Of a stretch of DNA of 43,779 bases, positions 31,135 through 43,779 are shown piece after piece. This DNA is from a virus (Duplodnaviria; Heunggongvirae; Uroviricota; Caudoviricetes). The translations under genes were made by a program, and so were the position numbers. Where the stretch lies: IMG/VR virus record IMGVR_UViG_2534681654_000010, one strand, 5' to 3'. The first letter of the stretch is position 1, and every line of letters starts with the position of its first letter. Under the pieces are notes generated by a model that ran no database searches, was not told the origin of the DNA, and saw only the letters and a list, made by a program, of their open reading frames with translations.

Positions 31135-31560
31135 TCAGAAAAGTGGCGGTTGCGTTCTTGCCAGATGCAGACGGCGCTGTTCGCGTATGACGGTATAAAT
31201 CTGGGTTTCTGACATCCGGTAATGGCGGCGAAGGGATTCAATTTTCTCGCCCCGGTCCCAGCGCGAAAATATCTCATTGTTTCGCAGCTCGGCAAAGAGA
31301 GATTCCCCGACCGGCAGGTAATAACCCCGTCCGCCCATATAGGCTGCCTGAGCCGCAGCCACCTTGCGTGCCAGTTTACCGGCCAGTACCGGCTCAATCC
31401 CCTGACGCTGAAGTTCTGCGCCGGTGACTTCAACCAGTTCTGACAGGGTCCGCGGCCAGTTCTTTTTGAGAACATCATCAGGGATGTCATCAAGGCGGTC
31501 GATAAGGGCGTGCAGTTGCTCACTGTCACCACCAAACATGCTCATCTGAGTTTCTGCCAT
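31135..31560 (-). CDS. Mor/C-family transcriptional activator (middle/late gene activator)
   Basis: 141 aa with the Mor/C-family pattern (…LIDRLDDIPDDVLKKNWPRT…IYTVIREQRRLH…); the only family member seen between gemA and lys. Confidence 0.7.
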   Translation of the reverse strand: MAETQMSMFGGDSEQLHALIDRLDDIPDDVLKKNWPRTLSELVEVTGAELQRQGIEPVLAGKLARKVAAAQAAYMGGRGYYLPVGESLFAELRNNEIFSRWDRGEKIESLRRHYRMSETQIYTVIREQRRLHLARTQPPLF

Positions 31561-31629
31561 ATCAGCCTCCGGTTCTCGCGTTCCCGGTAAGTTTAAAATA
31601 AAAATCCCGCGTTGTGGCGGGATTTGGGG

Positions 31630-32139
31630 TTAACGGGGAAGTGATTTTTCATACTGCCTGCAAACGGCGTCATACCCCATCAGCGTGCGTTCGGGCATTC
31701 CCATCGCGGCCAGCATTTTGCGGCGGTGCCATCGCTTGAGACGCTCCAGCACATCTGAGGCCAGGGCGGGGTGTTGCTCCAGCCACTGCCAGTTTGCCAC
31801 ACCTTCGCCGCCGTTCTGCGCGGCCGTCTGCGATTTCACCCAGCGGTTAAGGGCGGTTTCCGCACCATCGGTGATAAAGCCCTGCCGGTGCATCACCTTC
31901 CAGATGGCGCGAATTTTGGCGGTCACCGTACCCGGTTTTAAGGCCCGGTTAACCGGGTTCTGACGCACTTTAAAACCGCGTTTTTTGAAAACATCCAGCA
32001 CGCGGGATAACTCATCCGGTGACATATCCCGGCAGCTGGTTTTGCCGGTGGCTGCCAGCAGCGCGGATGTATAAGTCTCATCATCCAGGGCAAGCTCGCG
32101 CTTTGCCACATGAATGGCGGATATCAGTTTTCCTCTCAT
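31630..32139 (-). CDS. gemA: GemA-like regulatory protein
   Basis: 169 aa adjacent to the Mor/C-family gene, as in Mu. Confidence 0.6.
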   Translation of the reverse strand: MRGKLISAIHVAKRELALDDETYTSALLAATGKTSCRDMSPDELSRVLDVFKKRGFKVRQNPVNRALKPGTVTAKIRAIWKVMHRQGFITDGAETALNRWVKSQTAAQNGGEGVANWQWLEQHPALASDVLERLKRWHRRKMLAAMGMPERTLMGYDAVCRQYEKSLPR

Positions 32140-32619: not shown

Positions 32620-32986
32620 TTGCTTTATCCTCCATGCTGGACAGAATCATATGTATTAATGTCGGGCGTGGAGATATACGCATTTCATTAAGCGTCTGAA
32701 GGGCAGCAACAGCTGCCTGTTTATCGGTGCCTTTGGCAATTTCAGCAAGAGAATGCACAATCCATAACGGACTTAACGCCACGGCTGAATCCAGAATCAT
32801 GTCATCCATAATAATTTCTGGCATATCCCGTTTGTCACATTCTTTATCCATAAAAGAAACGATTTTTTCTGCATCTTCCGGTTTCATGCCTCCGGCGATG
32901 AGAATTTTACGATATTCATAAGACGATCTTAATTCAATACTCATATTCATCTCCTGTAACTCTGACAAGGTCGTGATTTTTCTCAT
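32612..32986 (-). CDS. hypothetical protein (early region)
   Basis: 124-aa ORF, overlapped with neighbours; no family recognised. Confidence 0.4.
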   Translation of the reverse strand: MRKITTLSELQEMNMSIELRSSYEYRKILIAGGMKPEDAEKIVSFMDKECDKRDMPEIIMDDMILDSAVALSPLWIVHSLAEIAKGTDKQAAVAALQTLNEMRISPRPTLIHMILSSMEDKANE

Positions 32987-33168
32987 TTATGTTTTCCAGT
33001 AATACGGATATATATGTCGATAAGAAGATTCATAATAAACAGGAAGAGCGACATCCTGATAAAGAACCATATATCCGGCATCATGGACAGATTTCCTGTA
33101 ACCGCAAATATAAAACCAACCCCCCACACAGGAACGATAATTGCGAAAAAAACAAGTCTCCTTATCAT
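32983..33168 (-). CDS. hypothetical small two-helix membrane protein
   Basis: 61 aa, very hydrophobic; AT-rich. Confidence 0.4.
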   Translation of the reverse strand: MIRRLVFFAIIVPVWGVGFIFAVTGNLSMMPDIWFFIRMSLFLFIMNLLIDIYIRITGKHK

Positions 33169-33716
33169 GTCGTTAACTCCCGTAATACAACATCTTCGGC
33201 AGTCCGACGACGGTGATAAATAAAACTCACCGTGCCCTCGGATAATTCAAATTTCTCGCCGATTTCCCTAAAGGTAAGACGCCGTGGTGATTCAGCATCC
33301 CGTAATTCACGAATAAGATGAACATCATCGTCAGGTATGCGGGTAAAAGGCAGTAATTCTCCGTATTTTTTCATGCTTACGCCAATATATCGCGCCCGAT
33401 TGTGGACAGAATCCCGGTCTCGCCCCAGATATTCTCCTATTTGCTTACCGGTCATCGTCCTGGCATTTTTTCGGATAAATTTATCTTCATCAGGTTTAAA
33501 TCTGAGGCGTTTGCATTTGAGCAACTCCGGGTAAGTACCGCGTAATAAAACAATCCGGTTATGTACACCCCAGAAACTTCTTTTTATCCTGACAGCAATA
33601 TCCTTAACCGGGGTGGATGGATAAAGCGCAATCAGCAGCGCATCTTCTTCAGGTGTCCATGCGCGAACATGAGCGGGTGCACGGCCTTTTCTCCCCATGG
33701 GTTGTAATTTCATCAT
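33165..33716 (-). CDS. hypothetical DNA-binding protein with Myb/SANT-like and HTH-like repeats
   Basis: 183 aa; WTPEEDALLIALY resembles a Myb/SANT helix; two further HTH-like segments. Confidence 0.45.
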   Translation of the reverse strand: MMKLQPMGRKGRAPAHVRAWTPEEDALLIALYPSTPVKDIAVRIKRSFWGVHNRIVLLRGTYPELLKCKRLRFKPDEDKFIRKNARTMTGKQIGEYLGRDRDSVHNRARYIGVSMKKYGELLPFTRIPDDDVHLIRELRDAESPRRLTFREIGEKFELSEGTVSFIYHRRRTAEDVVLRELTT

Positions 33717-33719
33717 GCA

Positions 33720-34235
33720 TCACCCCCCGACTCGCTTTTCGGCAGCATAAAACTCATCAGACAGAATTTCGGTCATTTTCCGTTTTGCGGAATCATCTTC
33801 GCACTGAAGGTAAATAACATCGTCAACGCAGAACCACTTCACGGGACCATGCAATATTGCTGAGAAGTCAATACCCAGCCAGAACAACAGTGCATCGGTT
33901 CTGGCATACGTGACGGGCGAATATTCACGCCACAGACTGTTAAGTTCGTCAGAGGCAACGCGCAGGGCTTTGGGAATACGTGATGTGCGCGGTGTGCAGC
34001 TCCAGCCATTCGACGCAGTCGGTTTTCGCCATAAGTCGCGATGAAAAGGATATTTGTCATCCATAAAGCGCAGCCCTTTAAAACAAAAGCCACTGATACC
34101 GGATACAAATACCGACCGGCACGCAACATTCAGCACGGCCTCAAGGCGTTTTGCCTCATCCTTAACTTTCTGGCAGTCCTGCTGATATTTTTGCCACGCG
34201 GCCAGCGCGGAAGGGTTTGATGTTTTAAAGAACAT
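33720..34235 (-). CDS. hypothetical protein (early region)
   Basis: 171-aa ORF, tight spacing with neighbours. Confidence 0.45.
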   Translation of the reverse strand: MFFKTSNPSALAAWQKYQQDCQKVKDEAKRLEAVLNVACRSVFVSGISGFCFKGLRFMDDKYPFHRDLWRKPTASNGWSCTPRTSRIPKALRVASDELNSLWREYSPVTYARTDALLFWLGIDFSAILHGPVKWFCVDDVIYLQCEDDSAKRKMTEILSDEFYAAEKRVGG

Positions 34236-34768
34236 TACGCCACCTCCGCAGATATCCCGGCAGGTGCAGCCGTCCGGTCAACAATCAGGTAACGCAGAAC
34301 ATGTTCGGTGATATTCCAGCCGCTTAAACCGCAGATAATGACACCCAGGCGAATGTCGATATACGCCATCACAAACTGGGGCACGCCTTCTTTCATGGCC
34401 TGCTCATCAACTTCAACCACCACATAAACGGTTTCGCAGGTCAGTACGCCCTGAGCAAATTCCCACGCCATCGACGGAATATCATGCCCCTCAATCCACG
34501 GCAGGGATTTTCTGAAGCTGCACCACTGAACATCATCAGCCGCACCTTCCTGGCTGCATTTGCGACGAACCGGCTGCACCGGGCGGGGACGCGGAATATC
34601 ATAAAAACCGTTACATTCCGTCAGCACCCCGGCATCGACCGCATCACGCAAAAAATAAACCATCGAGGATGGCGGCATATTCATTTTTTCAGCCAGAATG
34701 CCGCAGGTCAGACGCCCGTAAATACTCAGCCAGTTTTTAACCCCTTCAAGCACTTTTGCATCAATCAT
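34235..34768 (-). CDS. hypothetical protein, possible N-terminal winged-helix
   Basis: 177-aa ORF sharing a stop/start junction with the next gene. Confidence 0.45.
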   Translation of the reverse strand: MIDAKVLEGVKNWLSIYGRLTCGILAEKMNMPPSSMVYFLRDAVDAGVLTECNGFYDIPRPRPVQPVRRKCSQEGAADDVQWCSFRKSLPWIEGHDIPSMAWEFAQGVLTCETVYVVVEVDEQAMKEGVPQFVMAYIDIRLGVIICGLSGWNITEHVLRYLIVDRTAAPAGISAEVA

Positions 34769-34771
34769 GAA

Positions 34772-35314
34772 TTATTCCTCCGTCAGCGCCACATATTCAG
34801 AATGTTTAATTTCCTGGCATTCTTCAGGAATACACCCTTTTATTTCCCTGCCATAAGCGCCTACTTTAAACACCACGCACAGGGCATCACGGGAGAGCGA
34901 CGGGGTCCACCAGGAGTCCGTGTTAAACATGGAGGGGATTCTCATTACCCCCAGCTTTTCACAGAGCCAGACAAGGAAATCAGGACGCTTTCTTAACTCA
35001 CGTTCAGCGGTTTCAATCATTGCGGCAATCGCCGGACCTTCAGGGCATGACTCATCAGGTCTGGCAATAAAGCACGGTCCGTCCCCGATAAAAGCCACAT
35101 CATCGCGCTTACGCCAGCCCGCAGGCAGAGCACCAGAAAAATAAAACTCACTGATTACGTCCATGGCAAACGGCTTTAAGCGCAATCCGGCAGCGCCTGT
35201 ATTTTTCAGTAATGCCCGAAGAATACTGTTGCGTAGCGGTAAAACAGTCTGTTGATATTTGGTGAAATATTTATTTGTCTGCACACGGTCTAATTTGAAA
35301 TAAAAATATGCCAT
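34772..35314 (-). CDS. hypothetical protein (early region)
   Basis: 180-aa ORF downstream of gam. Confidence 0.45.
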   Translation of the reverse strand: MAYFYFKLDRVQTNKYFTKYQQTVLPLRNSILRALLKNTGAAGLRLKPFAMDVISEFYFSGALPAGWRKRDDVAFIGDGPCFIARPDESCPEGPAIAAMIETAERELRKRPDFLVWLCEKLGVMRIPSMFNTDSWWTPSLSRDALCVVFKVGAYGREIKGCIPEECQEIKHSEYVALTEE

Positions 35315-35411: not shown

Positions 35412-35942
35412 TTATTTATTCAGTCCGGCGTCCTGTTCAAAAGGCTCGACATAAAAACTTTCAGCGCCTTTATTCACCTTAATACCGGCAATCCCTTTCA
35501 CCGCATCCGGCTCCGCCAGGACCGCTTCCTTGTTCACTTCCTCTTTCGTGCGGATAAAACGCTCAAGGCCCATACGGCGCAGCATTTCAATCACACCTTC
35601 CACATCACGACTGACGCTGCATGATGGATTCCCCAGTCGCCATGACACCGTTCCGGTGGTCAGATTGGCAGTTTTGGTTTTGCCGCCGTTCGTCAGCTCA
35701 TCACGGTTGGTTTTGCACCAGTCCTGAATCCCCTTAAAAAGCACTTTGATTTCTTTTTTAAGGTTTTCAATCTGCGGCGTATAACGGGCGGTGATTTCTG
35801 CCACTTCATCATTCATCGCTGTTTCCAGGCGCAGCGCCTCTCGCTGAATATCGCCCAGGGTGCGGATATCGCGGCTGACCTCTTCACGGGTCTGCGGTGC
35901 CGCCTCTGCTGCGGCCTTTAATTTTGTAACGCGTTTTGCCAT
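35412..35942 (-). CDS. gam: Gam host-nuclease inhibitor (Ku-like DNA end-binding protein)
   Basis: 176-aa product MAKRVTKLKAAAEAAPQTREEVSRDIRTLGDIQREALRLETAMNDEVAEITARY… resembles Mu Gam. Confidence 0.75.
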   Translation of the reverse strand: MAKRVTKLKAAAEAAPQTREEVSRDIRTLGDIQREALRLETAMNDEVAEITARYTPQIENLKKEIKVLFKGIQDWCKTNRDELTNGGKTKTANLTTGTVSWRLGNPSCSVSRDVEGVIEMLRRMGLERFIRTKEEVNKEAVLAEPDAVKGIAGIKVNKGAESFYVEPFEQDAGLNK

Positions 35943-37070: not shown

Positions 37071-37298
37071 TTAGCTGACTTGTTTCGCACCAACAGAACG
37101 GCATATTCCGCTGTAAACGTCTGTCGCACCTTCGCGATCAAGTCCGGCAGATATCACCATTCGTGTGCGGTCATTAAATTCAAAAAGTAAATCGCCACAT
37201 TCTTTATTTTCGGCCAGTGAAATCACCTTCACGTTATCGAAATTAACCAGGTAAAAGCGTCCGTAAATATCAGGAATATAAAATACCGCCATAATCAC
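37071..37298 (-). CDS. hypothetical early protein in the position of Mu kil
   Basis: 75-aa ORF immediately downstream of B; call by position only. Confidence 0.35.
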   Translation of the reverse strand: MIMAVFYIPDIYGRFYLVNFDNVKVISLAENKECGDLLFEFNDRTRMVISAGLDREGATDVYSGICRSVGAKQVS

Positions 37299-38227
37299 AC
37301 CTGTGAGAGTAATTCAGGGTTGGTATAAACCTCTTTAAAGGCCGCATTAATATGTTTTTCTGTCAGCGCCGCACCTTCACCGCTGGCGGTGAGCCACGCC
37401 TGGTTAAGCGTATGTGTCAGAACGCGTAACGCTCCCGGCTTTTCAGCGATAGCCTGCATGACGGCCAGCTCGGCCTCACCACTGATACCCCATGCCCTGG
37501 CAATGGCCAGCACATCCGCCTTTTTGGCCTTGCGAAGTTGTTTTGTACGGGCAAGACGGCTGAACAGGCGCGATAAATCATCAAAGGCGCGGCGTCCACC
37601 TTTAAACAATCCGCGCGGGTTACCAATAAGCACCATCCCGATCCCCGTGGCGTCCTGAATTGCCCGGAGTTGCTCCAGACCGTCAATACCAAGATGATCC
37701 GCCTCATCCACAATCACCAGTCCACGCGTTCCCATCAGGCGACGGCGGATGGCGCGGGATAATGCCCCTTTGTTCGCGCGGGTGTAATCAATCCCCAGCG
37801 CATCGGCCAGCTCCAGCAGACACTCCGTGACGCTGGAGTGCGCGGGTGACAGGGTGATCATCCAGGTGTTTGGTTGCTCCTGGCAGTAATTACGGGCGGT
37901 GGCCGTTTTACCTACCCCCGGCACGCCCACAATGACGTTAATACAGCCCATCAGGCGAACCGCCTGAAACAGTGCGCGCAGCTCCTGAACTGTCTGCGTT
38001 TCCACAAACTGCGGCGGTTCCGGCAGTGCGCTTTGTTTATTCCAGTTCTCATACCAGGAACGCAGGGAAGCAGCCACAGCGGCGTTATCGCCTTTATATT
38101 TCCCCTTGCGGAAAGCCGATAATGTGCCGTCGGAAATTCCCGCCTCTCTGGCGATGGCATACTGCGTCAGTACGCCGCCATCAATAAGTTCATCAATGGT
38201 CTTGATTACATCGTTAATATCAGTCAT
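37295..38227 (-). CDS. B: MuB-like AAA+ ATPase (transposition target DNA activator)
   Basis: 310 aa with N-terminal HTH and Walker A GVPGVGKT; directly downstream of the transposase. Confidence 0.85.
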   Translation of the reverse strand: MTDINDVIKTIDELIDGGVLTQYAIAREAGISDGTLSAFRKGKYKGDNAAVAASLRSWYENWNKQSALPEPPQFVETQTVQELRALFQAVRLMGCINVIVGVPGVGKTATARNYCQEQPNTWMITLSPAHSSVTECLLELADALGIDYTRANKGALSRAIRRRLMGTRGLVIVDEADHLGIDGLEQLRAIQDATGIGMVLIGNPRGLFKGGRRAFDDLSRLFSRLARTKQLRKAKKADVLAIARAWGISGEAELAVMQAIAEKPGALRVLTHTLNQAWLTASGEGAALTEKHINAAFKEVYTNPELLSQV

Positions 38228-38297: not shown

Positions 38298-40388
38298 TCA
38301 GGCCAGCGGGTCATTTTCTTTTAATTTCGCTTCGAGCAACTGCAATCCCCGCTGGAAATTGCGCTCGTATTCTTCATCAGGCTCATCATCAATGGCAGGT
38401 TGCTGAACGGCCACCGTATTACCTACCGGGCGATAGATGTTTTCCAGCCAGGGCTCCTGCGGCTTGTGCTCCAGCACGTTGACAACCTCATCCTCGGCAT
38501 CACGGATTTTTTCCTCTGCGCGTTTACGCATGCCTTTAAGGCGTTGCTGCTGTTTGTAGTATTCCGCGCTAACCGGGAAGGCTTCGCGTTTATTACCGTC
38601 CCATACCGCCTCGCAAATCACGCTGCCATCCAGGCGACGTACGGTAATTCGTTCGGCATCATGAATGTCATAGCTGATAAGCACCTTGCGGCCATGCTCA
38701 TCACGCAGCTCGGGCGCGTAGTAAATATTATTCAGCCAGCGTATTTCACAGCGTCTTACAGGGCGTTCCACCATCGGCCGGAACATGTCCCGCAATTCCA
38801 CATCGGACAGCCATTCAATTTCCGTGTCCTCTTCCGCCAGGCGTTTTTTTCTGAACTCCGCCGGGCTGTAATGCTTGCCGTTCGGCTTCACCGGTAATTC
38901 ATCGTGCGGCCGGTTGTTGTACCACTCAACACCATCACGAATGGCATCAATCAGTTCAGACCAGGACGGTAAATCACGCATCGCTGACTGCTGCCGGGCG
39001 TTCAGCCGTTTGCCCTGTTGCAGGGCAGTAAATGCCGAGCGTAAATCGCGGTTGGTTTTGCGTAACGTCTCGCGATCTGCACCTTTCCCGAAATAGGTGC
39101 GGTATTTACGGGCTATGCGCATCGGTAATGTGCGGTTAAGCCGTTCGATAATGCCTCGTCCCTGCGGATTACCGGCAATCCCGGTCGGGTGATTAATCCC
39201 CAGTCGCGGCAGTATCCCCACAACCTCCTTATCCAGGATGTCGGCGGTTTCCCCGGAGCCGTTATCCGAGTAATACAGAAACGGTTTGCCGTGATGGCGA
39301 ATGCCGTGCTGTATGGCACCGGCTACGGCGAAAACATTTTCAGCCAGGTCAAGGCTCCAGCCCACCACAAAGCGCGTGCCACCGTCGATAACAAAGGTCA
39401 CTTCCGGTGCAAATGGCCGACCGTGAACCGGGTGTGCGCATTTCAGCTTCATGCCGTGACCGTCACCAATCCAGACATAATTCACCGGCATTCTGGACCA
39501 GTCGCGGCGCGTGAATCCCTCAAGCTGGCGGTATTCACTGCCGGTCACCCGGCCTTTTTGTTTCACCACTTCCGGCAGTTTCTTCATTGCGCGGCGAATG
39601 GTGTCATAAGACGGCATGATATCGAGCATATAAGGCTCATCAGCGTGCCGGTGCTGCCATTCAGCGACAAAATCCTCGTAAGCCTCGGTCATTGGTCGGC
39701 CGTTTGACTGGCGATACTGCGCCAGAAATTCGGGCAGCCAGTTAATATCTTCGGCTTTTATTTCCTGGCGTTTACCCGGTGCCAGTAAAAGCAGGCGTTC
39801 AGCGGCGTTCTGTGCCTTGTTAAAGGCCGCAATCCATCGCTTCAGCGTGATTTCACTCAACGCACGGCTGTTTCCCTTTTTGGCGTTCGCCGTCTCAACC
39901 ATTGCCACAATGCGCTCGTCCAGCTGTGAACGTGCCAGGTTGTCAACGATAAACCGGATAGCCTTCGCGCAGCTGAAACCGGGTTGTTGCGCGACTTTCA
40001 TCACTTCGCTGACGATCGCGATTCGTGCATCAGCCACCTGGCGCTGGTTTTCAGTCAGGGCATTGAGGCGTTCGACCATCAGTTGTGGTGATCCGCGATA
40101 TGCCTCCACCGCATCAACCACGTCAGATGAGCGTCTGGCCTTTGTCACCACCGGAGCCGGTGATTCATCGGCTTTTTGCGTCATCAGTTGCAGGGCATAA
40201 CGTTCACGTAATGCCTGCTGCGTCACTTCAGGTAAACAGTCGATGCTGTATTCAGTTGCTTTAGAGCCTGAGCGACGACGGGAACAACAGCTTTTCCCTT
40301 GTACGTAACGTTGTAATGCCTGGCGAATACCTTTTGTTGTAGCAGGCATTCCGGGCGCGCCAATCAGTTCTTTTGCAATGACATACAT
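38298..40388 (-). CDS. A: MuA-like DDE transposase
   Basis: 696 aa; strong overall resemblance to Mu transposase A, with central catalytic core and C-terminal acidic tail. Confidence 0.9.
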   Translation of the reverse strand: MYVIAKELIGAPGMPATTKGIRQALQRYVQGKSCCSRRRSGSKATEYSIDCLPEVTQQALRERYALQLMTQKADESPAPVVTKARRSSDVVDAVEAYRGSPQLMVERLNALTENQRQVADARIAIVSEVMKVAQQPGFSCAKAIRFIVDNLARSQLDERIVAMVETANAKKGNSRALSEITLKRWIAAFNKAQNAAERLLLLAPGKRQEIKAEDINWLPEFLAQYRQSNGRPMTEAYEDFVAEWQHRHADEPYMLDIMPSYDTIRRAMKKLPEVVKQKGRVTGSEYRQLEGFTRRDWSRMPVNYVWIGDGHGMKLKCAHPVHGRPFAPEVTFVIDGGTRFVVGWSLDLAENVFAVAGAIQHGIRHHGKPFLYYSDNGSGETADILDKEVVGILPRLGINHPTGIAGNPQGRGIIERLNRTLPMRIARKYRTYFGKGADRETLRKTNRDLRSAFTALQQGKRLNARQQSAMRDLPSWSELIDAIRDGVEWYNNRPHDELPVKPNGKHYSPAEFRKKRLAEEDTEIEWLSDVELRDMFRPMVERPVRRCEIRWLNNIYYAPELRDEHGRKVLISYDIHDAERITVRRLDGSVICEAVWDGNKREAFPVSAEYYKQQQRLKGMRKRAEEKIRDAEDEVVNVLEHKPQEPWLENIYRPVGNTVAVQQPAIDDEPDEEYERNFQRGLQLLEAKLKENDPLA

Positions 40389-41609: not shown

Positions 41610-41614
41610 GGGAT
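41610..41614. repeat. target-site duplication GGGAT, right copy
   Basis: Identical to 2850-2854; followed by H-homologous sequence gat cgt gaa aag…. Confidence 0.8.
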
Positions 41615-43090
41615 GATCGTGAAAAGGCCCGTCTTGCGCTTGAAGCCGCCCGAAAGAAGGCTGAGCAGCAGAGTCAACAGGACAAAAATGCGCAGCAACA
41701 GAGCGATACCGAAGCGTCACGGCTGAAATATACCGAAGAGGCGCAGAAGGCTTACGAACGCCTGCAGACGCCGCTGGAGAAATATACCGCCCGTCAGGAA
41801 GAACTGAATAAGGCACTGAAAGACGGGAAAATCCTGCAGGCAGATTACAACACGCTGATGGCGGCGGCGAAAAAGGACTATGAAGCGACGCTGAAAAAGC
41901 CGAAACAGTCCGGCGTGAAGGTGTCTGCGGGCGATCGTCAGGAAGACAGTGCTCATGCTGCCCTGCTGACGCTTCAGGCAGAACTCCGGATGCTGGAGAA
42001 GCATGCCGGAGCGAATGAGAAAATCAGCCAGCAGCGCCGGGATTTGTGGAAGGCAGAAAGTCAGTTCGCGGTACTGGAGGAGGCGGCACAACGTCGCCAG
42101 CTGTCCGCACAGGAGAAATCCCTGCTGGCGCATAAAGACGAGACGCTGGAGTACAAACGCCAGCTGGCTGTACTTGGCGACAAGGTCACCTATCAGGAGC
42201 ACCTGAACGCGCTGGCACAGCAGGCGGATAAATTCGCACAGCAACAACGGGCAAAACGGGCCGCCATTGATGCAAAAAACCGGGGGCTGACTGACCGGCA
42301 GGCAGCGCGGGAAGCCACGGAACAGCGCCTGAAGGAACAGTATGGCGATAATCCTCTGGCGCTGAATAACGTCATGTCAGAGCAGAAAAAGACCTGGGCA
42401 GCTGAAGACCAGCTTCGCGGGAGCTGGATGGCAGGCCTCAGGTCAGGCTGGAGTGAGTGGGAAGAGAGCGCCACGGACAGTATGTCGCAGGTTAAAAGTG
42501 CTGCCACGCAGACCTTTGATGGTATTGCACAGAATATGGCGGCGATGCTGACCGGCAGTGAACAGAACTGGCGCAGCTTCACCCGTTCCGTGCTGTCCAT
42601 GATGACAGAAATTCTGCTTAAGCAGGCAATGGTGGGGATTGTCGGAAGTATAGGCAGCGCCATTGGCGGCGGCGCATCAGCGTCAGGCGGTACAGCCATT
42701 CAGGCAGCTGCGGCGAAATTCCATTTTGCGGCCGGAGGGTTTACGGGAACCGGCGGCAAATATGAGCCAGCGGGGATTGTTCACCGTGGTGAATTTGTCT
42801 TCACGAAGGAGGCAACCAGCCGGATTGGCGTAGGAAATCTTTACCGGCTGATGCGCGGCTATGCCACCGGCGGTTATGTCGGTACACCGGGCAGCATGGC
42901 GGACAGCCGGTCGCAGGCGTCCGGGACGTTTGAGCAGAATAACCATGTGGTGATTAACAACGACGGCACGAACGGTCAGATAGGGCCACAGGCACTGAAG
43001 GCGGTTTATGACGTAGCCCGTAAGGCGGCAATGGATGTTGTGACCGGGCAGATGCGCGATGGTGGTCTGTTCTCCGGAGGTGGACGATGA
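41610..43090 (+). pseudogene. H: tape measure protein H, C-terminal fragment, separated from its 5' part by the Mu-like insertion
   Basis: Frame reads …DDREKARLALEAARKKAEQQ… to …MRDGGLFSGGGR*, matching the lambda gpH C-terminal portion; in frame with the N-terminal fragment once the insertion and one TSD copy are removed. Confidence 0.9.
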
Positions 43091-43416
43091 AAACCTTCCG
43101 CTGGAAAGTGAAACCCGGTATGGATGTGGCTTCGGCCCCTTCCGTAAGAAAGGTGCGCTTTGGTGATGGCTATTCCCAGCGAGCGCCTGCCGGGCTGAAT
43201 GCCGACCTGAAAACGTACAGCGTGACGCTTTCTGTTCCCCGTTGGGAGGCCACGGCGCTTGAGTCGTTTCTGGCTGAGCACGGGGGCTGGAAGGCCTTTC
43301 TGTGGACGCCGCCTTATGAGTGGCGGCAGATAAAGGTGACCTGCGCAAAATGGTCGTCGCGGGTCAGTATGCTGCGTGTTGAGTTCAGCGCAGAGTTTGA
43401 ACAGGTGGTGAACTGA
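43087..43416 (+). CDS. M: minor tail protein M
   Basis: 109 aa MKTFRWKVKPGMDVASAPSVRKVRFGDGYSQRAPAGLNADLKTYSV… matches lambda gpM; ATGA overlap with the H stop. Confidence 0.9.
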   Translation: MKTFRWKVKPGMDVASAPSVRKVRFGDGYSQRAPAGLNADLKTYSVTLSVPRWEATALESFLAEHGGWKAFLWTPPYEWRQIKVTCAKWSSRVSMLRVEFSAEFEQVVN

Positions 43417-43779
43417 TGCAGGATATCCGGCAGGAAACACTGAATGAATGCACCCGTGCGGAGCAGTCGGCCAGCGTGGTGCTCTGGGAAATCGATCTGA
43501 CAGAGGTCGGTGGAGAACGTTATTTTTTCTGTAATGAGCAGAACGAAAAAGGTGAGCCGGTCACCTGGCAGGGGCGACAGTATCAGCCGTATCCCATTCA
43601 GGGGAGTGGTTTTGAACTGAATGGCAAAGGCACCAGTACGCGCCCCACGCTGACGGTTTCTAACCTGTACGGTATGGTCACCGGGATGGCGGAAGATCTG
43701 CAGAGTCTGGTCGGCGGAACGGTGGTCCGGCGTAAGGTTTACGCCCGTTTTCTGGATGCGGTGAACTTCGTCAACGGAA
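43416..43779 (+). CDS. L: minor tail protein L, N-terminal part (3' end outside window)
   Basis: ATG at 43416 overlapping the M stop; frame open to the window end; MQDIRQETLNECTRAEQSASVVLWEIDLTEV… matches lambda gpL. Confidence 0.85.
   Translation, partial: MQDIRQETLNECTRAEQSASVVLWEIDLTEVGGERYFFCNEQNEKGEPVTWQGRQYQPYPIQGSGFELNGKGTSTRPTLTVSNLYGMVTGMAEDLQSLVGGTVVRRKVYARFLDAVNFVNG

Follow-up and report, generated by a model that had tools for sequence, protein, structure and literature searches.

The window, meaning the whole 43,779-nucleotide stretch of viral DNA that was analysed, is that of a Mu-like prophage, and the target gene, at 33165-33716, is 100% identical to its counterpart in E. coli E2865. 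An 8-kb stretch of the window is 96-97% identical to regions recorded as 'inserted Mu-like phage' in Stx-converting phages. On the minus strand, the early genes run in the order ner-like helix-turn-helix (HTH) gene, A, B, small open reading frames (ORFs), gam, a 180-aa ORF, homologues of Mu gp11 and gp12, the target gene, four small ORFs, gemA, mor, and lysozyme (Table 1). The phage has a single Mor/C-family activator with the lysozyme gene directly after it, whereas Mu has mor, three small genes, C, and lys. When ten neighbouring genes were searched against Pfam, the Mu Gp11 C-terminal domain was the only match. In many near-identical prophages the 180-aa ORF is swapped for a version 23-31% identical to it, which marks this position as a mosaic hot spot.

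Table 1. Features of the early region and segments of the three-HTH protein, with positions counted along the window
Feature	Position	Strand	Remarks
Transposase A	38298-40388	minus	
B	37295-38227	minus	
gam	35412-35942	minus	
180-aa ORF	34772-35314	minus	PHROG 2260; between gam and gp11 homologue
Mu gp11 homologue	34235-34768	minus	PHROG 1949, Pfam Gp11_C
Mu gp12 homologue	33720-34235	minus	PHROG 2314
Shine-Dalgarno-like run GGGGGG	33723-33728	minus	7-12 nt upstream of target ATG
Target gene, complete ORF	33165-33716	minus	183 aa plus stop codon (33165-33167); D5-like / PHROG 323 triple-HTH protein
N-terminal basic arm, residues 1-17	33666-33716	minus	Net charge +4; G11 and H16 invariant; low model confidence
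Domain 1, residues 18-62	33531-33665	minus	Myb/SANT/GcrA-like three-helix bundle; helices 22-31, 37-44, 48-59
Domain 2, residues 73-114	33375-33500	minus	Second Myb/GcrA-like three-helix bundle; helices 75-84, 90-97, 101-110
Domain 3, residues 127-171	33204-33338	minus	HTH like sigma-70 region 4 / AsnC-type; helices 129-140, 149-156, 160-169
C-terminal conserved helix, residues 172-183	33168-33203	minus	T172 and A173 conserved; net charge -2
61-aa strongly hydrophobic ORF	32983-33168	minus	PHROG 19804; ATG overlaps target stop (ATGA)
gemA/gp16	31630-32139	minus	
Strong terminator-like hairpin	31602-31625	minus	9-bp stem then T-run; between gemA and mor
mor	31135-31560	minus	

The prophage spans about 2855-41609 (38.75 kb), with its transposase end at the right, and sits within the tape-measure gene of a lambdoid prophage that occupies positions 1-2854 and 41610-43779 of the window. 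A 5-bp direct repeat, GGGAT, is present at both junctions (2850-2854 and 41610-41614), and the tape-measure gene is uninterrupted in O157:H7 strain 86-24, where it reads ...TTACTGGGATGATCGTG..., so the repeat represents a target-site duplication of the Mu type. At the left (mom-side) end, the prophage starts without the canonical TG. In the E2865 copy (L001), RefSeq places a 'tRNA-OTHER' feature at 2697-2777, between the virion morphogenesis and minor head genes, and annotates frameshifts in the minor head, DUF935 portal-like, and tail sheath genes.

Read on the minus strand, the target is an exact ATG-to-stop ORF; the plus-strand frame across the same interval contains many stops. Its ATG lies 3 nt past the stop codon of the gp12-like gene (33720-33722), a gap that indicates tightly packed genes of one operon. 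At the other end, the overlap with the 61-aa hydrophobic ORF, which is found in only some related prophages, suggests that the two genes may be translationally coupled. In a scan for promoters, promoter-like sites were not in excess, and the stretch immediately upstream of the target had none. This absence, together with the tight same-strand packing, makes it most likely that the gene is read from the early promoter. The hairpin between gemA and mor is the first terminator-like site downstream of the target on its strand, which agrees with a place for the gene within the early (Pe) operon. The region corresponds to the 'semi-essential early' region of Mu, which is poorly conserved and encodes small proteins whose function is uncharacterised (PMC8705779).

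The ORF is a genuine gene of the early region of a Mu-like prophage, conserved and under purifying selection. Its product is identical to UniProt A0A0H3JR91_ECO57 from E. coli O157:H7 and to RefSeq WP_000977060, a protein known in exactly this form from at least 1000 contigs. The target DNA occurs in 229 of 5426 complete E. coli genomes, and intact homologues with 37-100% amino acid identity were found in 65 IMG/VR viral contigs. Pairwise dN/dS of the target ranges from 0.15 to 0.26 in comparisons with alleles that have dS of 0.09-0.8. A second, divergent allele is carried by loci L023-L041, in which identity to the window is 71-74% for the target protein and 88-98% for the neighbouring gp11 and gp12 homologues. 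In a 100-bp sliding comparison, the trough in identity (to 0.64) is confined to 33600-33165, the 3' two-thirds of the ORF, and covers mainly domains 2 and 3; identity recovers at the stop codon. With dS of about 0.8 and dN/dS of about 0.2, the divergent allele points to recombinational allele replacement, and diversifying or positive selection was rejected on the same values. Phages with the divergent target allele also tend to have different alleles of mor and gemA.

The architecture of the protein was examined with alignment A1, which comprises 27 full-length enterobacterial homologues that are 42-97% identical. An AlphaFold2 model built on A1 (mean pLDDT 85) has three three-helix bundles followed by a C-terminal helix and is all-helical, with no beta-sheet, and the three HTH domains account for the whole chain. 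Domain 1 retains W20, T21, D25, L28, R46, R54, and L58 as invariant residues; domain 2, which opens with F73 where many relatives have W, is homologous to domain 1; and domain 3 carries a nearly invariant LTFxEIGEKF. When the domains were compared with one another by hhalign, domains 1 and 2 matched at 98.3% (E 1.5e-14), domains 2 and 3 at 75% (E 2.5e-5), and domains 1 and 3 only weakly, at 12%. Domains 1 and 2 are clear homologous repeats, and domain 3 is a diverged or different HTH. Invariant residues are also found in the short linkers and at both termini, and the N-terminal arm may contact DNA or a partner protein. The protein has a pI of 10.1 and is net positive in the arm, domains 1 and 2, and the linkers; domain 3 and the C-terminal tail are net acidic. 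A whole-chain Foldseek search against the PDB returned nothing significant and was uninformative because the domains are loosely connected, and a phmmer search of PDB sequences with the single target sequence likewise gave nothing significant, a family profile being required.

With such a profile, the likeness of the first two domains to Myb repeats is supported. The A1 profile matched c-Myb R2R3 among PDB sequences at E 4.9e-6 over profile positions 18-106, with domains 1 and 2 in register with c-Myb R2 and R3, and B-Myb at 7e-5. It also matched a multi-HTH CRISPR-repeat-binding protein (PDB 2lvs) at E 1.6e-4 over two domains. Pfam Myb_DNA-binding (PF00249 / PF13921) was matched by 20 of the 27 homologues (E <= 0.01; best 6.3e-9), and on the target alone it scored 16.6 bits against a cutoff of 24.4, over residues 19-31 only. 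The closest structural neighbour is the DNA-binding domain of GcrA (PDB 5yiu), followed by Bdp1 SANT, CDC5L Myb, WER R2R3, Reb1, CoREST SANT, and Tc3. As in Myb/SANT domains, each bundle forms its HTH from helices 2 and 3, but the target does not preserve the triple-tryptophan core of the c-Myb and B-Myb R2R3 structures (PDB 1h88, 1a5j, 1mse): W20 is the sole invariant tryptophan of domain 1, and aliphatic residues fill the second and third positions. The target also differs from these proteins in its third, different HTH and in its origin in a bacterial virus. Its fold is of the type found in the N-terminal DNA-binding domain of GcrA, and Pfam GcrA (PF07750) gave no match to the target at E up to 10. 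Caulobacter GcrA has one DNA-binding domain and a C-terminal domain that interacts with sigma-70, whereas the target has three DNA-binding domains and lacks that C-terminal domain.

For the single target sequence, every Pfam match fell under the gathering threshold. Sigma70_r4, matched by 20 of the 27 homologues, scored 23.5 bits on the target against a cutoff of 24.1, over residues 145-169 only, and HTH_11 gave a sub-threshold match to residues 80-106. The protein is not a sigma-70 or ECF factor, as the region 4-like HTH occurs without region 2 and TIGR02937 scored 18.6 vs 42.9. Most NCBI records, and UniRef, name the protein 'AsnC family', which would make it a ligand-responsive regulator of the AsnC/Lrp type, and an AsnC-type HTH (PF13404) does match residues 131-163 at 20.1 bits, below its cutoff of 27. 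That match reflects a generic HTH in the C-terminal domain and not an N-terminal winged HTH. The ligand-binding RAM domain (PF01037) gave no match at E up to 10, and the all-helical model has no beta-sheet. Membership in AsnC/Lrp was therefore rejected, a ligand-responsive role of that type is extremely improbable, and the NCBI label is wrong. Some homologues are already named 'SANT/Myb-like DNA-binding domain-containing protein' in RefSeq. These results bear out part of what the sequence-only reading had proposed, namely a 183-aa product (for which it gave no strand) with one Myb/SANT-like signature and two further HTH-like segments. The three motifs it quoted are present at residues 20-32 (WTPEEDALLIALY), 88-113 (MTGKQIGEYLGRDRDSVHNRARYIGV), and 147-167 (LTFREIGEKFELSEGTVSFIY), structure prediction, which it had suggested as a check, gave the HTH fold, and the Myb likeness extends to domains 1 and 2 together.

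The target belongs to PHROG 323, 'transcriptional regulator, D5-like', which it matches at E 1.1e-58 (200 bits; protein residues 2-182 against profile positions 80-256 of 319). Two named phage proteins belong to the same family, D5 of phage T5 (E 1.2e-71) and gp9 of Mu (E 5e-29). The target family, represented by A1, aligns with T5 D5 in hhalign at 96.6% (E 5e-10) over 144 colinear columns, with D5 residues 72-232 paired with target residues 19-172 across all three domains. Both are early phage proteins built of tandem HTH modules with no enzymatic domain. D5 (T5.118, YP_006946) is called a DNA-binding protein in its RefSeq note, which states that DNA replication and late transcription require it and that it also takes part in shutoff of expression; the primary source is McCorquodale et al. 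1979 (J Virol 29:322), cited as reference 34 in PMC12630848. D5, at 255 aa, is extended at its N-terminus by about 70 residues and shares only about 27% identity with the target over the positions aligned by hhalign, both of which count against functional equivalence. It is also essential for replication and late transcription in a virulent phage, whereas the target lies in a dispensable early region of a temperate transposable phage. The target is a distant relative of D5, and a D5-type function might be extended to it by analogy only.

Canonical Mu also encodes a relative. Mu gp9/E8 (Mup09, NP_050613, 99 aa) aligns with target residues 66-166 at 32% identity in BLASTP (E 6e-10), matches the target family in hhalign at 97.9% and the A1 HMM at E 1.8e-12, and is labelled D5-like in RefSeq, as is PHROG 323. 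Its N-terminal half aligns with domain 2, which also aligns with c-Myb R3, and its C-terminal half pairs with domain 3. Judged from these alignments, gp9 is a two-domain homologue of domains 2 and 3, with no counterpart of the N-terminal arm or of the Myb-like domain 1. The claim that a tandem-HTH regulator is foreign to the canonical Mu early region thus did not hold. An HMM scan found one family member per phage, in the same early operon, in both the target phage and Mu. The positions differ, since gp9 lies directly upstream of gam and the target comes after the homologues of gp11 and gp12, where Mu has gp13/gp14; the slot of gp9 is filled in the window by an unrelated gene (PHROG 2230). Searches by tblastn, both of a phage collection and locally, gave no link between the target and gp9, and Mu was missing from the first phage search because plain tblastn misses a relationship that BLASTP, hhalign, the family HMM, and PHROG all recover. 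The literature searched yielded no report on the target protein and none of a function for gp9, so the relative in Mu is not, as far as these searches go, a protein of established function; a paper on DRT4 and ORF55 deals with a T5 protein unrelated to D5. The target extends a known phage family by one uncharacterised member, and it is not a new kind of regulator.

One view of such a protein is that of a host-takeover factor, a role raised already in the sequence-only reading, and here one that would act mainly through protein contacts. SANT-like surfaces or the conserved termini would attach it to RNA polymerase, sigma-70, or a nucleoid protein and so redirect host transcription. SANT domains often bind proteins, and GcrA acts through sigma-70. 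Conservation in the target reaches beyond the HTH cores into the N-terminal arm and C-terminal helix, domain 3 is acidic, as is the tail, and the gene has proved portable between unrelated temperate phage backbones, as described below, all of which would suit such a role. Domains 1 and 2, however, are strongly basic and align with DNA-binding Myb repeats and not with acidic SANT domains, and T5 D5, the relative that has been characterised, binds DNA. No partner-binding motif could be recognised, and no effector match was found, including in the PADLOC defence models, which matched neither the target nor five neighbours at E <= 0.01. A takeover function of this kind is improbable.

The gene is distributed over two main kinds of temperate phage, with 46 of the 65 IMG/VR loci Mu-like and 19 P2-like. 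In all Mu-like loci that extend upstream with recognisable neighbours, it follows the gp12 homologue and precedes gemA-mor-lys, and this gene order is kept down to 48% identity, so that a survey of Mu-like prophages, one of the checks envisaged beforehand, places the gene at a conserved early position. Carriers include the Mu-like prophages of many enterohaemorrhagic E. coli, some of them inserted in Stx-converting phages. In the P2-like prophages, which have a tyrosine integrase and a gpA replication protein, the three-HTH gene also lies in the early operon, and in all 19 P2-like IMG/VR loci its immediate predecessor is a D12-class adenine methyltransferase, and replication gene A follows it. 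A PAPS-reductase-like gene is present between the three-HTH gene and gpA in some of these loci (L045-L064). In one P2-like locus (L054, 5057-10052), the stop of the methyltransferase overlaps the start of the HTH gene. Two-domain versions are found among small early genes in the P1-like phage D6 and in Vibrio siphophages. Linkage to a methyltransferase is not universal, since the P2-like Citrobacter phage Shae_phiSM carries the three-domain gene without an adjacent methyltransferase, and none is nearby in the Mu-like carriers.

Beyond these phages, the domain belongs to a much larger population of small HTH arrays. An exhaustive profile search returned 13,887 representative clusters at E <= 0.001. 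Among the best 150 of these, 26 were single-stretch matches of 121-216 aa, mostly full-length (about 170-216 aa), and the other 124 were proteins of 190-1100 aa with 3-10 tandem copies of WTxEEDxxL...EIAxxLGRSxxSVxxRAxxLGL, examples of which are P0033, P0034, and P0043, with P0034 fused to a helicase. The tandem-repeat proteins of bacteria and mobile elements and the Sulfolobus Cbp1 fragment (PDB 2lvs) are, like the target, beads-on-a-string arrays of small HTH domains. The tandem-repeat proteins carry as many as about 10 near-identical repeats, or are fused to enzymes, whereas the target has exactly three differentiated domains joined by conserved linkers. Viral structure matches were mostly uncharacterised proteins, proteins named 'Myb-like domain-containing', or nuclease fusions, and matches in mycobacteriophages lay in or beside genes annotated as DNA methylase or HNH endonuclease. 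Such fusions of domain relatives to helicases, HNH nucleases, and methylases fit a DNA-targeting module. A pattern scan of genome contigs gave one weak locus only, the back-translated patterns being too specific. In a Verrucomicrobiae MAG (L069, 5821-6960), a 379-aa protein has about seven tandem WTxxEDxLLG... Myb/GcrA-like repeats and sits, as judged by eye from sequence, between 988-aa relaxase/helicase-like and 530-aa serine-recombinase-like proteins, which suggests that mobile elements other than phages often carry the repeat family.

These neighbourhoods invite the view that the protein is an accessory in DNA transactions, one that would aid or time replicative transposition or replication, or would read or direct DNA modification, for example of Dam-methylated DNA. 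The DNA-binding domain of GcrA, which is the top structural neighbour, recognises m6A sites. In Mu-like, P2-like, and Vibrio phages the gene has replication and recombination genes around it, and the requirement for T5 D5 in DNA replication, besides late transcription, is a further point in favour, as are the adenine methyltransferase before the gene in the 19 P2-like loci and the methylase and endonuclease genes at the mycobacteriophage matches. The methyltransferase linkage may reflect one lineage, given its absence in Shae_phiSM and the Mu-like carriers, and the target has neither a Pfam GcrA match nor the sigma-70-binding C-terminal domain of GcrA. An accessory role of this sort is possible but unlikely.

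The reading preferred here is that the target is probably a D5-like early protein that binds double-stranded DNA and affects the timing of phage transcription, replication, or both. It is a small, basic protein built solely of modules of the nucleic-acid-binding type. We infer for it DNA binding itself, tandem binding by a monomer, and a regulatory outcome. To judge from the tight same-strand packing, the gene would share a transcript with transposase A, B, and gam, made from the early promoter once the prophage is induced. c-Myb R2R3 binds the DNA major groove with two repeats. A single molecule of the target could place three recognition helices in successive major-groove positions of double-stranded DNA, and its occupancy would then influence the expression of phage genes or replication. 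If T5 D5 is a guide, the result might be a shut-off of early genes, or the enabling of later transcription and replication.

Several considerations weigh against parts of this D5-like reading. Domain 3 and the tail are net acidic, and SANT-type domains can bind proteins instead of DNA. Mu-type phages already use Ner, Mor, and C for their transcription programme. The same gene occurs in unrelated Mu-like and P2-like backbones, a point against a regulator that is bound to the promoters of a single phage. The spread over Mu-like and P2-like phages leaves room for a host-directed role or for one that is not sequence-specific. A more speculative and quite improbable reading is a portable reader of DNA state, in which the GcrA/Myb-like array would recognise a generic feature, such as clusters of Dam-methylated or hemimethylated GATC, instead of the promoters of one phage. 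If true, this would explain the movement of the gene between Mu-like, P2-like, and other temperate phages and its position right after a Dam-type methyltransferase in one P2-like lineage, and it would tie the early-to-late switch to the status of replication or methylation.

For the transposable phages, these results provide a fold, a family, and a testable function for one gene in the semi-essential early region, about which little is understood, and they connect the uncharacterised gp9/E8 of Mu with the biochemically studied D5 of T5. They also correct a widespread misannotation as 'AsnC family protein'. If the target affects the timing of induction, it may have a bearing on prophage biology in pathogens; otherwise, it would be an ordinary accessory DNA-binding protein.
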